From an uncultured Lentisphaeraceae bacterium (lineage in GTDB: Bacteria; Verrucomicrobiota; Kiritimatiellia; RFP12; DVOR01), in NCBI GenBank assembly GCA_949282555.1, contig CASDPK010000021.1:1732-65731 (forward strand): a stretch of 64,000 bases of DNA, written 5' to 3'. This document shows positions 38,338 through 45,800 of the stretch, one piece after another (the stretch's first letter is position 1; each line of letters opens with the position of its first letter). The notes under the pieces are model-generated. The model ran no database searches and had not been told where the DNA came from. It saw only the letters and a program-made list of their open reading frames with translations. A program made the translations under genes and the position numbers.

Positions 38338-39642
38338 CCTGTTCTTGATTTGCGCATCAAGATGATTCCAAATATTCGTTATCATACCTTCCGCATTTTC
38401 ATGCCGCGCGGACGTTGATAGATTGATGGTCGCACCTGATTCTTTCCCCCATTTACCACCCATCGAGGCGACCCAATCAGAAGCATTTTTCTCGAATGAG
38501 ATCCATCCTAATGTTCCGCCAACAATTGTGGTTAATCCTGGAACTCCTGATGCAATGTCACCCACCCCTTTAGGAACATAAATATTAATCCACACATCCG
38601 TATCTTTAAGCGATGGGGCGGACGAAAGCGCCCCAACTGGATCAAGTGTGATTAACAGATCCAAACCGCGATTCTCATTTTCGTTTATAAAACCAAGCAC
38701 TTCAGCTGCCGTTGCCCCCCCGAGACTATGTCCTATTATGACAAGTCGAGTACAATTACATTTTTTTAGATATGAATTTATTTCCTCTGCAATCTGTTGA
38801 CTGTTCTCTTTGCAGAATCGCCAATAGTAATAGGCAATCTTTGCGTCTGGGTAACGTTTGGCTATTACGTCATACACATCTTTCCCTACTCGTTCATGAT
38901 TTTCATCTCCAAACCCTCCGATAAGAATTACCAAAGCTGGAGGGCAGTCATCTTTGGATTTGGGCGGAGATCCGAGAGGCATTTCCTCTCTTAGCCCAAG
39001 AATATCGATGCACGAAACCGAATTGTTCGAACAAAACAAATACGTCTCAGGGAACAGACAATCCCGTCCGCTCCAACGTCCAAATATTGGCAAATAATGC
39101 CTAAAGTTATAGTAAAAAAGTCCAAGTTTCTCATCAAGCATTTCAGAGGAAAAGCGATAGGGATTGTCAGACCCCGAGGAGGCGGTAGGGGAGCCGCAAG
39201 GGGTGTAATCGTAATGGACAACGCTTCCTTGAAGATCCACGAGGTCGGAGACGTTTTTGTTACCGTCGTGGAAATAGTAGGAAAGGGTTCCGGAAACTGG
39301 CTGGAAGACGAGTGGGCGGGTAGCGATGGGTTCGGTGGGATCCCACACGTAGGAGTGGAAGAGGGCGTTGTCGGTGCCACGAAGTTGCTGGATGCAGAGG
39401 TAGTTGTCGTAGACAAAACGTTGGAGGGTTTCTTCGCCATCCTTCACTGTGCGCATTTCGACACGGCGGCCCATGCGGTCGAAGGCCATGGTGATCACGG
39501 TGTCGCCGGATTCCCAACGGATGGGGCGGTTTTCGGCATTGTAGGAGACTGACCAAATGCCGGTTTCGGTCTTGATGAGGGTTTGATTTCCTATCTCACT
39601 CATGCTCATGGGCACATGTATTCTGATATCGCCGTAGAGCAT
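38335..39642 (-). CDS. Orphan Rhs core fragment + alpha/beta-hydrolase (lipase-like) toxin tip
   Basis: WDPTEPIATRPL, YYNFRHY, DILGL junction at about 39000; GHSLG, LITLDPVG, distal His. Confidence 0.85.
   Translation of the reverse strand: MLYGDIRIHVPMSMSEIGNQTLIKTETGIWSVSYNAENRPIRWESGDTVITMAFDRMGRRVEMRTVKDGEETLQRFVYDNYLCIQQLRGTDNALFHSYVWDPTEPIATRPLVFQPVSGTLSYYFHDGNKNVSDLVDLQGSVVHYDYTPCGSPTASSGSDNPYRFSSEMLDEKLGLFYYNFRHYLPIFGRWSGRDCLFPETYLFCSNNSVSCIDILGLREEMPLGSPPKSKDDCPPALVILIGGFGDENHERVGKDVYDVIAKRYPDAKIAYYYWRFCKENSQQIAEEINSYLKKCNCTRLVIIGHSLGGATAAEVLGFINENENRGLDLLITLDPVGALSSAPSLKDTDVWINIYVPKGVGDIASGVPGLTTIVGGTLGWISFEKNASDWVASMGGKWGKESGATINLSTSARHENAEGMITNIWNHLDAQIKNR
39592..39624 (-). repeat. 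33-bp in-frame hairpin insert, degenerate copy
   Basis: agaatacatgtgcccatgagcatgagtgagata; six transitions relative to the 43972 copy. Confidence 0.8.
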
Positions 39643-39647
39643 CAGCG

Positions 39648-42205: not shown

Positions 42206-42865
42206 TTATCGGACATCAATGATAGTTCTAGAAAGAACATGCCCCAGTTTAAACTCTTCCAACTGAGGAAGATCGTGAAGATTGTGAAAATCGGACATTA
42301 TGTTTCCTTTATCTAATAATGAGAGAACTTCACTTGGGGACGCGTATGTAAGCGTAGTAATATCTCCTCCGGCGCATGATACAACGGTAATCCTTGAAGT
42401 TATCTTGATATATTCTCTAGGCTCTACAACACACACTTTCTCCTTCCCATTCTCTTCAAATGAAAATGAAAATCCATTAAAGCCTACTTGGAGCATTTTT
42501 CCGACATCCTTTCTTGAAAAGAGAAAGATGAAGAAAGACATATATGGCGCATTCTTTTTGGGGATATATCGATAAAAAAGAAACGAAGAATCAGAAGTAT
42601 ATGCCTCATTCATGCGTTGCAAAATATCTAATATGGTTTCCTTGTTGAGAACGGGAGAGAAACTCATAATAGCACCGTGCAACCCTTCACTCAATTTTCC
42701 GATAACTGTTGGTGGAATGTAACTAATCCACCCTTTTTCCGAATTAAAACTAAACGACGCATCAAGAGAAATATATGCAATTACGTCAGGTTGCCGTATC
42801 TCATAGCATATGTAGATAAAAAAACTAATGGCGATGATCGTGGCAAAATAGGTACGTCTTTTCAT
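42206..42865 (-). CDS. Membrane-anchored putative immunity protein for the main Rhs toxin
   Basis: ATGA overlap with the Rhs stop; N-terminal hydrophobic anchor; AT-rich. Confidence 0.72.
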   Translation of the reverse strand: MKRRTYFATIIAISFFIYICYEIRQPDVIAYISLDASFSFNSEKGWISYIPPTVIGKLSEGLHGAIMSFSPVLNKETILDILQRMNEAYTSDSSFLFYRYIPKKNAPYMSFFIFLFSRKDVGKMLQVGFNGFSFSFEENGKEKVCVVEPREYIKITSRITVVSCAGGDITTLTYASPSEVLSLLDKGNIMSDFHNLHDLPQLEEFKLGHVLSRTIIDVR

Positions 42866-45800
42866 TTAAAATCCTCCTTGGCACAACGATGCGTATATGA
42901 AATTTCATCAGTGGCTAATATCGTAGACTTCTCTGAAATGCTTCTATCAACTGAACCGCCTCCGAAAGAGAATCCTAAAATAACGTTACTCGTCTTCACA
43001 ATATTAATTTTATGAATACTAGTTCCTAGAACAGAACCATCTTCGTTTATGACTACCTCTATTTCTGACCCACTCCCATCTATCACCTGATCCACATTAA
43101 TTGACACTCCGACAGGGCCAGCACTTATGCCCAATCCTCTGCCATTACCATTATCAGAAAGAAATCTTCTGGCCACGACGTTTATGCCCGCTCGTACTAC
43201 ACGCTTCCCATTCTTGCATAAACATTTGCCCCATGTTACATATTCCACTTCCGCAATATAGTTATTCGGGACTCGATGCCGAACGCCACTGCCTGGTAAC
43301 ATCGGAATCTTTCCTAATACAATATCTCGTTCACCATCTTGAAATGGGATTTGTTTTTTTAACAGTCCAAGCCAATCAAATTGAAATGGGGAATTGGAAA
43401 CAAAGGAAAATAAATTAACTCCATCCAATTCCCCTATTGGGTCTTTACTACACCACCTTCCGTTGTTGGGTTGATAATGACGGTAATTATAGTATGTAAG
43501 GCCTAATGTCTCATTGAAGTATTCCGAAGAGAAACGATACGGATTTTCGGAAGGGCTCGAAGCCATGGGAACACCAAAAGGTGTGTAATCATAGTGTACG
43601 AAGGCTCCAGAGAGACACACAAGGTCAGAGACGTTTTTGTTACCGTCGTGGAAATAATAGGCGATTTCACCCGCTGAAGAGATGAAAACCAGCGGACGGG
43701 TGGCGATGGGTTCCGTGGGATCCCAAATGTAGGAGTGGAAGAGGGCGTTGTCGGTGCCACGAAGTTGCTGGATGCAGAGGTAGTTGTCGTAGACGAAGCG
43801 TTGGAGGGTTTCTGCGCCATCCTTCACCGTACGCATTTCGACACGTCGGCCCATACGGTCGAAGGCCATCGTAATCATGGTGTCGCCGGATTGCCAACGG
43901 ATGGGGCGGTTTTCGGCATTGTACAGAACCGACCAAATGCCGGTCTCGGTCTTGATGAGGGTCTGATTTCCCACCTCGCTCATGCTCGTGGGCGCATGTA
44001 TTCCATCGGCGTCGTATTGTGGCGCGAAGTCATCGATGGCGGTGTATTGGTTGAGGTTGTTGGCGGTGTAGGTCTTGCCTTCGGCGGTGGTACGATTGCC
44101 GATGTCGTCGTAGGCATAGGAAACTTCGTCTGCGGAAATCAGTTCATTGCGGACGTTGTAGCCGTACTGCTCGTCGTTCTTCGAGGTTCGGCGACCAAGG
44201 AGATCATTGGTGTAGACGTACGTGGAATAGGTGGCGTTGGTGACGGCGGTGAGGAGGTCGCGGTGGGGTTCGTAACTCCATGTGACCACGGCCTCATTGG
44301 GATAGGTGAGTTTAGACTTGAGATTGGAACCCGCGAGGTAGTCCCACGCAAAGCCATCGGACTCGGCGATGCGGCCGGTGGCGGAGTCATAGGTGATGGA
44401 CTGCTTGCGTTCCCCATCGACGGAGTAGCCCACATTGCGACCGAAGGCATCCCAATGAAGGGTGAGGGTTTTGGCGTAGAGACCGCTTACTTGTTCGACC
44501 GTGCGTTGGCCGAAGGCATCATAGGTGAAGGTGGTGGTGCCGACGGCATCGGTGGCGGAGATTCGGCGGCCCATGGCGTCGTAGGTATAGGCAATGTCGG
44601 GCGTGGTGTCGGCGTAGTCCACCGAGAGGAGTTGCCCCCAAGCGTCGTAAGTATAGGTTGTGACGATGTTGCGGGCGTTGGTGCGGGTGGCGAGTTGGCC
44701 ATTGTTCGTGTAGGTGTAGGTCAGGCCCTTGCCGTCGGCGTAGGTCTTGGCGAGGAGAACTCCCGAGGCTTCGTCGTACGTCCACGTGGTGGTGTCGCCC
44801 ACACCGGAGGCCTCGTTGCGATAGGTCGTCATGGAGGTCTTGTTGCCGAAGACGTCGTAGGTGTAGCGGACAGGATAGGTGGCGCCGCCTTCGTAGGTCT
44901 TGTTGCCCCGCAAATCATACTCGTAGGTTATGACATTGCCGAGGGCATTGGTGACGGCGACGGTCTGCCCCATCACGTCGTAACCGTAGGCCGTGACGGC
45001 GCCGACGGCATCGGTGACTGACATGAGGTTTCCTTTGGCATCGTAGGCAGAAACGGTGCGGTTGTTGCGGCCATCAATGGCGGCCACGCGACGGTCGAGC
45101 GCATCGTACTCAAAACGGTTGGTCACACAGGCCGTATCCACCGTCTCGACCAACTGACCGAAGGCATAACGCTCAATCTGCGGGTTCGAGCAGGAGGGTA
45201 CCTGTGTGGTGCGCTGGGTGTCGTTGCCAAAGGTGCGGGTCTCGTTGCCGCGGATGTCCACGATAATTTGGTTGAAGGTATTGGAAACCGAGAGACCGGA
45301 GAGCTGGGTATAAACCGTTTGCGTCAAGGGCGCAATGTCCGCATCGGAGCACGACTGCACGGCGGTTTGTTTCTGCCACACGTTACCATCGCGCAAAAGA
45401 TACTCCGCTTCGCTCTGCTGTTTGCGCCACACCTCACCGACCGTCTGCGTGAGGGCGGTTTGCTCGCCCATCACATCATAGGCATAGGATTGCACGGGCT
45501 GACCCGTCTCACTGATTTGGCTTGTGCGCCCATAACTGTCATAGGCCATCGACGTTTCCAGCGTGGAACCATTCGCCCCGGAGCGGGTTTGGCGGAGGGT
45601 CTGGCCGAGGAGATTCTGTTCCGTCTTCTGCCAACGCGCTCCCGTGGCGACGCGCTCCCACAGGGGGCCGTAGGTGACCGCCTGCGGCTGGACAGCGGTG
45701 CCGGAGAGTTCAAGGAGACGACCGATGGCGTCCGTCTTGCGGATCTGTGTACCACCATTCGGGAAGGTGGTGGTGACGGTGCGACCATCAAGGCCATAGG

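Follow-up and report, generated by a model that had tools for sequence, protein, structure and literature searches.

A 33-nt in-frame cassette with filled and empty alleles in the Rhs core tails of one uncultured bacterial genus, and its probable spread by recombination between rhs genes

The stretch of DNA analyzed here (the window) comprises 64,000 nt from contig C21 (CASDPK010000021.1, positions 1,732 to 65,731 of the forward strand) of an uncultured Lentisphaeraceae bacterium (genome G000, assembly GCA_949282555.1; 2.43 Mb, 94.3% complete); homologous proteins carry the source name Candidatus Spyradenecus. The window harbors a main rhs gene, encoding protein P0001, and two orphan rhs fragments, orphan 1 (P0002) and orphan 2 (P0003), all on the minus strand (Table 1). 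In the C-terminal tail of the Rhs core of these genes, a unit of 33 nt is present at some positions and precisely missing at others. We propose, with moderate confidence, that this 11-codon cassette arose once, came to occupy three sites through a few old, microhomology-guided copying events, and has since travelled as a passenger whenever orphans and main genes exchanged sequence by gene conversion.

The unit encodes the peptide x-H-A-P-T-S-x-S-E-V-G and is located, in frame, always immediately 5' of an Asn codon of the Rhs core. A preliminary description of this DNA had reported four copies of the unit, which add 11 codons in frame just before a Gly-Asn turn at two different sites, and the translations as well as the DNA sequence agree with this. 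A 23-nt core is exact at 43970-43992, 41693-41715, and 41564-41586 (minus strand), whereas the fourth copy, at the start of orphan 2, is decayed. In shuffled versions of the window, the core matched 0.01 times on average, and at least three matches were obtained in 0 of 100 shuffles. The two sites lie 129 nt apart. In the main gene, site 1 is empty (DDIG-NRTT) and site 2 is filled (DADG-IHAPTSMSEVG-NQTL). In the 604-aa orphan 1, both site 1 (DDIG-VHAPTSVSEVG-NRTT) and site 2 (DDDG-IHAPTSMSEVG-NQTL) are filled, as had been noted for site 1, and orphan 2 opens with IHVPMSMSEIG-NQTL, a decayed form of site 2. No other G-N turn of the main gene has the motif, again as described earlier.

Use of a degenerate pattern led to one more near-exact copy in G000, on contig C6, which defines a third site. 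This copy reads ...TGARALA-NHAPTSESEVG-NPFRFSSE and immediately precedes NPxRF, a conserved motif of the Rhs-associated core. In the three unit-bearing forms, YxPFG and NPFRF are separated by a loop of 22 residues, which equals an 11-residue form (..TG[AP]RA[AL][AD]) plus 11. The units at sites 1 and 2 are flanked by GGA(A), the bracket already recognized in the preliminary description, and the unit at site 3 is flanked by AAT(C), that is, by direct repeats of 3-4 nt in each case; the left end of the unit is not the same from site to site. A six-frame scan for the motif added two decayed units on contig C4. Altogether, G000 has four near-exact copies, or seven when the decayed ones are included, all of them inside Rhs reading frames. 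Outside the first codon and the codon at the tip of the predicted hairpin (loop codon), the remaining 27 nt are identical across the three sites, and all five differences between the copies at sites 2 and 3 are confined to these two codons (chance 2.5e-5 in a post-hoc test). Because the DNA is nearly identical between the sites, the unit must have been copied rather than have evolved twice. In intact contexts the loop codon is GTA at site 1, ATG at site 2, and GAA at site 3; truncated orphans that start at the unit (locus L012 and a locus in genome G001) have GTA in a site-2-like context.

The two decayed units on C4 (RDVPMNVSEWK and RDVPISVNEEG) belong to strongly decayed Rhs tail fragments at about 26.4-26.6 kb and 47.4-47.7 kb of that contig, which probably are old pseudogenized orphans. 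Apart from the unit, the loop from YxPFG to NPFRF (about residues 1498-1512 of P0001), which precedes the Rhs-associated core, is another hot spot of length changes: its length distribution in the homologues is trimodal, with 9 aa in 72, 11-12 aa in 22, and 19 aa in 65 proteins.

The preliminary description had suggested that homologues be aligned in search of empty alleles. Such alleles were indeed found, precise and at more than one site. The allele set consisted of 122 proteins, namely 119 orphan-length database homologues and the three proteins of the window, and 106 of them could be parsed across sites 1 and 2. Both sites are empty in 88 proteins, only site 1 is filled in 12, only site 2 in 4, and both are filled in 2; the 11-residue segment is thus not carried at both sites by all homologues. 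The empty homologues read DDIG-NRTT and D(A/D)DG-NQTL, and the filled ones have exactly 11 additional residues. The first two residues aside, the peptide is invariant in the 12 proteins filled at site 1 only and the four filled at site 2 only, and the flanking core residues are as conserved as the peptide. Filled and empty alleles do not sort into separate groups by their flanking haplotypes but are interleaved. This interleaving and the existence of all four combinations at sites only 129 nt apart indicate frequent recombination. In a search for the core tail in 28 genomes of the genus, 20 had matches, and most copies were empty at both sites; site 1 is filled and site 2 empty in G007 and G004, and the reverse holds for G023.

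The DNA sequence of the junctions differs between the two allele types. The Gly codon of the turn varies at empty site 1 (GGC 17, GGA 9, GGT 1) and at empty site 2 (GGC 11, GGT 9, GGA 6, GGG 2), whereas at filled sites 1 and 2 it is always GGA, on both sides of the unit. In same-site copies from different species the unit is identical, and the flanks differ at 0-3 of 60 nt, so that the unit has no clear excess of conservation. An assembly artefact, which had been raised as a possible source of the filled/empty difference, was rejected, since filled as well as empty forms recur across many assemblies made independently and also in contigs assembled from other sequencing runs. In three such runs (X17, X18, and X5), which belong to two other studies, contigs jump from 43967 to 44001 and so leave out exactly 33 nt, with an ambiguity of 4 nt. 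The run with the highest share of the window's words (0.89), which may be the source sample of the window, does not skip these 33 nt. Paralogy and strain differences would account for the stretches without cover in X5 and for a joint from 44346 to 41977.

How the unit came to be in the main gene can be seen from its closest counterparts. Two proteins with the toxin tip of P0001, namely P0123 (92% identity to P0001 over 700 residues) and P0124 (90%), are empty at site 2. In a stretch that starts at the unit and reaches about 90 residues further downstream, P0001 has residues typical of the orphans in the window (..DGAET.., ..LRGTDNALFHSY..), and thereafter it is again of the P0123 type; this patch was defined against P0123, P0124, P0002, and P0003. 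As the patch in P0001 is orphan-like and P0123 and P0124 are empty, it was within a conversion patch derived from an orphan that the unit reached the main gene. These comparisons demonstrate, at the level of sequence, that the unit moves into and out of genes by homologous gene conversion. The preliminary description had left open whether the unit is mobile or gene-converted, and it is the second part of this proposal that is borne out, whereas the restriction to three sites in one genus and the lack of a Y1/RAYT (REP-associated tyrosine transposase) gene, discussed below, speak against transposon-like mobility.

A different kind of product was found in P0077 and the two C4 copies, in which the left flank of site 1 is joined to the right flank of site 2 via a single unit, with loss of the 32 residues between the sites. 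P0077 combines a prefix of the site-1 type (LY) with the loop codon type of site 2 (M), as expected of a crossover inside the unit, and these joined forms fit recombination between two units. Three or four types of orphan begin at the unit or within a few codons of it, namely orphan 2 of the window (P0119 type), L012, locus L008 of G001, and P0075. The earlier suggestion that the unit may seed recombination gains a little from such cases, but deletions and orphan boundaries exist at the same turns also without it: for example, P0108 is an orphan that begins at the site-2 turn and has no unit. Other in-frame deletions between similar YD-turn sequences, likewise without the unit, were noticed in P0086, P0078, P0025, and P0082 (e.g., DDIG-ADGNQT), and the stretch between sites 1 and 2 is, judging from these alleles, generally prone to microhomology indels. 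Two further candidates were set aside. A Chi-like recombination signal was rejected for now, as the 7-mers and 8-mers of the unit have observed/expected ratios of 0.75-1.34 in G000, which is a weak test. An origin of the unit as a diverged duplicate of the preceding FAPQYDADG codons was rejected because about 12 of 27 bases match by eye, which was judged not to be above chance.

The distribution of the unit is narrow, as it was found only in one genus of Kiritimatiellae from the gut. Its pattern was found in 4 of the 27 other genomes of the genus, in none of 33 genomes from other genera of the order, and in only one of 141 genera among 301 genomes of the class. In a collection of genome contigs, 5 of 20 matches were Kiritimatiellaeota Rhs genes and the other 15 were in other frames or contexts, with roughly 17 matches expected by chance for this pattern. 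None of 27 matches in metagenome contigs was in an Rhs context, in a collection that may lack this gut lineage, and viral contigs yielded no match to the pattern, for which reason a phage origin was rejected. The search for further copies advocated in the preliminary description was therefore productive in part: copies were added on C6, on C4, and in other assemblies, but the true matches in G000 and the scanned collections are all in Rhs genes of one genus, and none is in an unrelated gene or intergenic.

Within Rhs genes, the unit is confined to the core tail common to orphans and full-length genes. Of 119 homologues of orphan length, 23 have it, compared with none of 118 long homologues of 964-3068 aa (Fisher p 7e-8); for close relatives only, the corresponding values are 16 of 82 and 0 of 25 (p 0.02), and both p-values overstate the contrast because related sequences are treated as independent in these counts. 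When P0001 itself is included, 1 of 119 long proteins has the unit. The long homologues without the unit reach down to about 45% identity. The absence of the unit from all 118 long homologues and its restriction to one genus indicate that it is a derived state. Among the orphans, the unit occurs in 12 of the 27 that have a common 5' leader (MVFAGTGVWKSKRG...VFIND), compared with 11 of the 92 others. The leader itself has a uniform structure: in these 27 of the 119 orphans (P0005, P0008, P0009, P0027, and P0039 among them), the sequence MVFAGTGVWKSKRG..LLGCRCVFI is joined to the core at NDEQYGYN. It is also present upstream of the match in L005 and L007, and the orphans that have it come from different assemblies, as if one type of orphan cassette with a fixed junction had been propagated with different toxin tips.

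Taken together, these results can be accommodated by the following scenario. The cassette would add a flexible loop, x-HAPTS-x-SEVG, before the Asn codon at three loop positions of the C-terminal Rhs-core tail. After a single origin, a few old, microhomology-guided events would have placed copies of it at the other two positions, that is, by template switching or short-patch ectopic conversion during recombination between tandem, diverged rhs copies. Since then, as the comparisons above show, orphans and main genes have gained and lost it as a passenger when they converted each other by ordinary homologous recombination, and precise loss between the flanking short repeats may also have occurred. 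On occasion, two units in one gene can also recombine with each other, whereby the 32-residue segment between them is deleted. No dedicated enzyme would be involved, and, at the protein level, the cassette would be a tolerated surface or lumen loop.

Several observations weigh against this scenario. The copying step between the sites is something that we infer rather than observe. Site 3 has no left flank of the YD type, and flank homology there amounts to only about 7 nt on the right side. Simple copying does not predict multi-base changes of the loop codon (ATG, GTA, GAA) beside unchanged stems, a pattern that would fit a constrained hairpin or sub-families of an element. The orphans that start at the unit are suggestive of a more active role in recombination than that of a passenger. 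A search of G000 for a progenitor with blastn-short yielded only the Rhs copies and chance words of at most 15 nt, and hence no donor outside Rhs. Furthermore, the comparison of units at the DNA level covers about 14 copies, and the contrast between orphans and long genes is subject to the overstatement mentioned above.

Three other explanations were considered, namely a dedicated mobile element, an ancestral loop that was lost many times, and a selected protein loop, each of which is less likely than the scenario outlined above. The near-identical DNA at three different sites and the short direct repeats that flank it there, GGA(A) in two cases and AAT(C) in one, could indicate a true non-autonomous micro-transposon, similar to a repetitive extragenic palindromic (REP) element, a miniature inverted-repeat transposable element, or a Rickettsia palindromic element (RPE), which a hairpin-recognizing enzyme would insert before GGN-AAY or AAY with a target duplication of 3-4 nt. 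The preliminary description had drawn attention to a hairpin, and the predicted minimum-energy fold is indeed CCCAC/GTGGG plus GC/GC around a 4-nt loop (ATGA, GTAA, or GAAA), with GNRA-type loops in two variants, GTAA and, in the copy outside the window, GAAA; the differences between the sites are concentrated in the loop codon. The folds are, however, not clearly better than those of shuffled sequences, with RNA z-scores of -1.56, -1.35, and -2.58 (14, 18, and 3 of 200 shuffles fold as well), -0.63 for the decayed copy, and DNA z-scores of -0.33 to -0.95. In addition, no Rfam family was found in the window from 39000 to 45000 at E values up to 1, and the hairpin is probably incidental. The inverted repeat of the unit is internal (CCCAC/GTGGG) and not terminal, and fixed termini would seem to be missing: taking the junction repeats to be 3-nt target duplications displaces the ends of the element at site 3 by 3 nt from their places at sites 1 and 2. 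A co-occurring HUH/RAYT transposase, which had been proposed as a check, was not found, as the Y1/RAYT profile PF01797 has 0 matches in the 94.3% complete G000, while a control search matched 6 of 14 named genomes. An IS30 transposase does adjoin orphan 2, but none of the 11 inverted-repeat pairs listed for 36000-39700, around its reading frame, involves the unit at 39592-39624, and the link to IS30 was rejected. Moreover, G000 has no more than seven copies, which are restricted to Rhs tails, no copy was found beyond a single genus, and 0 of 118 long homologues are filled, although each has dozens of G-N turns. A transposon-like mobile element is thus not supported by the sequences, and we regard this explanation as unlikely.

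The junction repeats, together with the weak hairpin, are also a classical substrate of slippage deletion. The loop might therefore be ancestral in the Rhs clade and the empty alleles might be due to repeated precise, hairpin-aided deletions between the GGA(A) repeats, in a region that is prone to indels (P0086, P0078, P0025, and P0082) and in a genome in which the old, decayed C4 copies indicate that the unit is not very recent. Yet 88 of 106 parsed homologues are empty at both sites, as are all distant ones, an empty site has the YDxxGN turn that is canonical for YD repeats, and the contrast between a variable Gly codon at empty sites (GGC, GGA, GGT, GGG) and an invariable GGA at filled ones fits one origin per site better than numerous separate losses. 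Nor can the same DNA at three sites be ancestral everywhere without copying. We consider repeated loss, by a small margin, the least probable of the three. Selection for a function of the 11-residue loop, for example in contacts or processing at the Rhs shell, would explain conservation of the peptide in the 16 proteins filled at a single site, its spread to three loops, its invariable frame, and its position in turns and loops, where an insertion is tolerated. Structure modelling, another of the checks proposed earlier, placed the unit in a loop within an otherwise confident beta-cocoon. The AlphaFold2 (AF2) model of P0001 residues 430-1600 has a predicted local distance difference test (pLDDT) value of 86.3 and a predicted template modelling score (pTM) of 0.77, and in Foldseek it matches the Rhs cocoons 8qjb, 7pq5, and 8uxt with E values of about 1e-43 to 1e-39. 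Its sole internal stretch with pLDDT below 50 comprises model residues 945-954, and the unit comprises residues 946-956, between two strands, so that, in the model, the unit forms a flexible loop within a hairpin turn. Such modelled disorder does not favor a selected function, nor does the equal conservation of the flanking core residues. The occurrence in 1 of 119 long proteins of the expressed type, compared with frequent occurrence in orphans of the silent type, is the opposite of what selection would predict, and this explanation seems to us about as improbable as the micro-transposon.

A bolder version of the copying scenario is doubtful. In this version the unit would be a new micro-element of polymorphic-toxin loci, a frame-preserving hairpin cassette of 33 nt that is copied from one loop codon ahead of an Asn to another, without a transposase, via the rhs recombination machinery and that marks or stimulates crossovers. 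Hints in this direction are the orphans starting at the unit, the deletions between two units, and the variable loop codon beside fixed stems. If copying between sites were active and repeatable, the unit would be an unusually small frame-preserving mobile unit and would represent a route by which repeat proteins gain loops. Independently of this, its presence or absence at three positions of rhs genes is a small, easily scored marker with which gene conversion between expressed toxin genes and orphans could be traced in this uncultured lineage from the gut, and exact 33-nt indels can circulate in the common Rhs-core tail with little sign of function.

The genes in which the unit resides are listed in Table 1. 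The YD repeats of P0001 match Pfam RHS_repeat PF05593 (E 1.2e-48) and TIGR01643 (E 3e-31), and the NCBIfam profiles that match this protein are YD_repeat_2x, RHS_core, and Rhs_assc_core. Its Rhs-associated core (TIGR03696) comprises residues 1513-1582 (68.3 bits, cut-off 32.5), ahead of the variable C-terminal tip. The toxin tips of P0001, P0002, and P0003 are all different. No family in Pfam or NCBIfam was found for the two open reading frames (ORFs) that follow the main toxin tip and orphan 1. The Rhs-core homology of orphan 2 starts at the unit, and its tip resembles class-3 lipases/esterases (PF01764, E 5e-6; Cutinase and DUF676 are weaker), which makes it a candidate phospholipase-type toxin domain. 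The IS30 ORF directly after orphan 2, for which no link to the unit was found, is given as context only. The G+C content of the orphan and tip region (36-44 kb) is 0.43-0.50, compared with 0.59-0.71 in the rest of the window, and because of this drop the orphan/tip array looks horizontally acquired.

Table 1. Positions of the unit, its empty site, and the surrounding genes in the window
Feature	Position	Strand	Remarks
Main rhs gene (P0001)	42862..48123	-	1753 aa; putative start at first TTG
Empty site 1 of main gene	44092..44103	-	ATC GGC AAT CGT = I G N R
Unit, site 2 of main gene	43972..44004	-	IHAPTSMSEVG; loop codon ATG; boundary ambiguous by 4 nt (GGAA repeated)
219-aa ORF after main toxin tip	42206..42865	-	candidate immunity gene, by position alone
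Orphan rhs fragment 1 (P0002)	40327..42141	-	604 aa; sites 1 and 2 both filled
Unit, site 1 of orphan 1	41695..41727	-	VHAPTSVSEVG; loop codon GTA
Unit, site 2 of orphan 1	41566..41598	-	IHAPTSMSEVG
225-aa ORF after orphan 1	39648..40325	-	candidate immunity gene, by position alone
Orphan rhs fragment 2 (P0003)	38335..39642	-	435 aa; lipase-like tip
Decayed unit at start of orphan 2	39592..39624	-	IHVPMSMSEIG
IS30-family transposase ORF	36860..38338	-	NCBIfam NF033563, E 2.2e-34; directly after orphan 2

Two other sequences emerged from the pattern searches. A different, longer, G+C-rich, hairpin-like repeat, GGGAGGGG-CCCACGAGCGNCAGCGARGTGGG-AGGGA, is present in contigs of Bacteroidales and related organisms (L011, L023, L027, L031, L050, L052, and L053), and a similar repeat is found in L030, L033, and L045; the hosts are low-G+C Bacteroidales and soil contigs. 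In the one frame read, that of the unit, these stretches have stop codons, and in the five loci checked the repeat has no Rfam family at gathering score. In addition, the DNA pattern matches, in another frame, one conserved gene of unrelated phyla (..GANSPTSASEVGTSAPTA..; L018, L020, L024, L025, L026, L029, L040, L047, and L054), most likely a conserved coding stretch that resembles the pattern by chance.

Rhs loci are a textbook case of recombination hotspots, and microhomology-guided templated insertion and short-patch ectopic gene conversion between repeats are general mechanisms. In line with these mechanisms, there are junction repeats of 3-4 nt and other microhomology deletions in the region, and the putative donors and acceptors are similar repeat turns within 129 nt or in paralogous genes. 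That the same 11 codons recur three times in frame within a single protein family is an unusually tidy outcome, and the mechanism is inferred here. RPEs are about 100-150 bp long, whereas the unit has 33 nt, seven copies in the genome, all in Rhs tails, and a weak hairpin. A full-text literature search, in the portions of text that it covered, gave no description of such an insert in Rhs genes.

The R. felis genome contains 728 RPEs, 85 of which lie within ORFs that belong to many different genes (PMC1166351); like them, the unit is a small palindromic repeat that is tolerated inside ORFs. With REP elements (PMC3733652), it shares the size class of 20-40 bp and a hairpin-like core, but REPs are extragenic and occur in high copy number, whereas all copies of the unit are coding and in frame and G000 has no Y1 transposase gene. 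The closest parallel to the genomic setting is provided by the rhs locus of Salmonella LT2, where a full-length gene is followed by orphan toxin/immunity modules with part of the conserved core and homologous recombination in this common part leads to chimeras, with no such insert described in the passages considered (PMC3967940). In the window, this kind of recombination between main and orphan genes has acted on a short tract and left an orphan-like patch, with the unit in it, in the main gene; unlike in Salmonella, the change consists not of an exchange of toxin tips but of a 33-nt in-frame indel, in the common stretch and at three positions.

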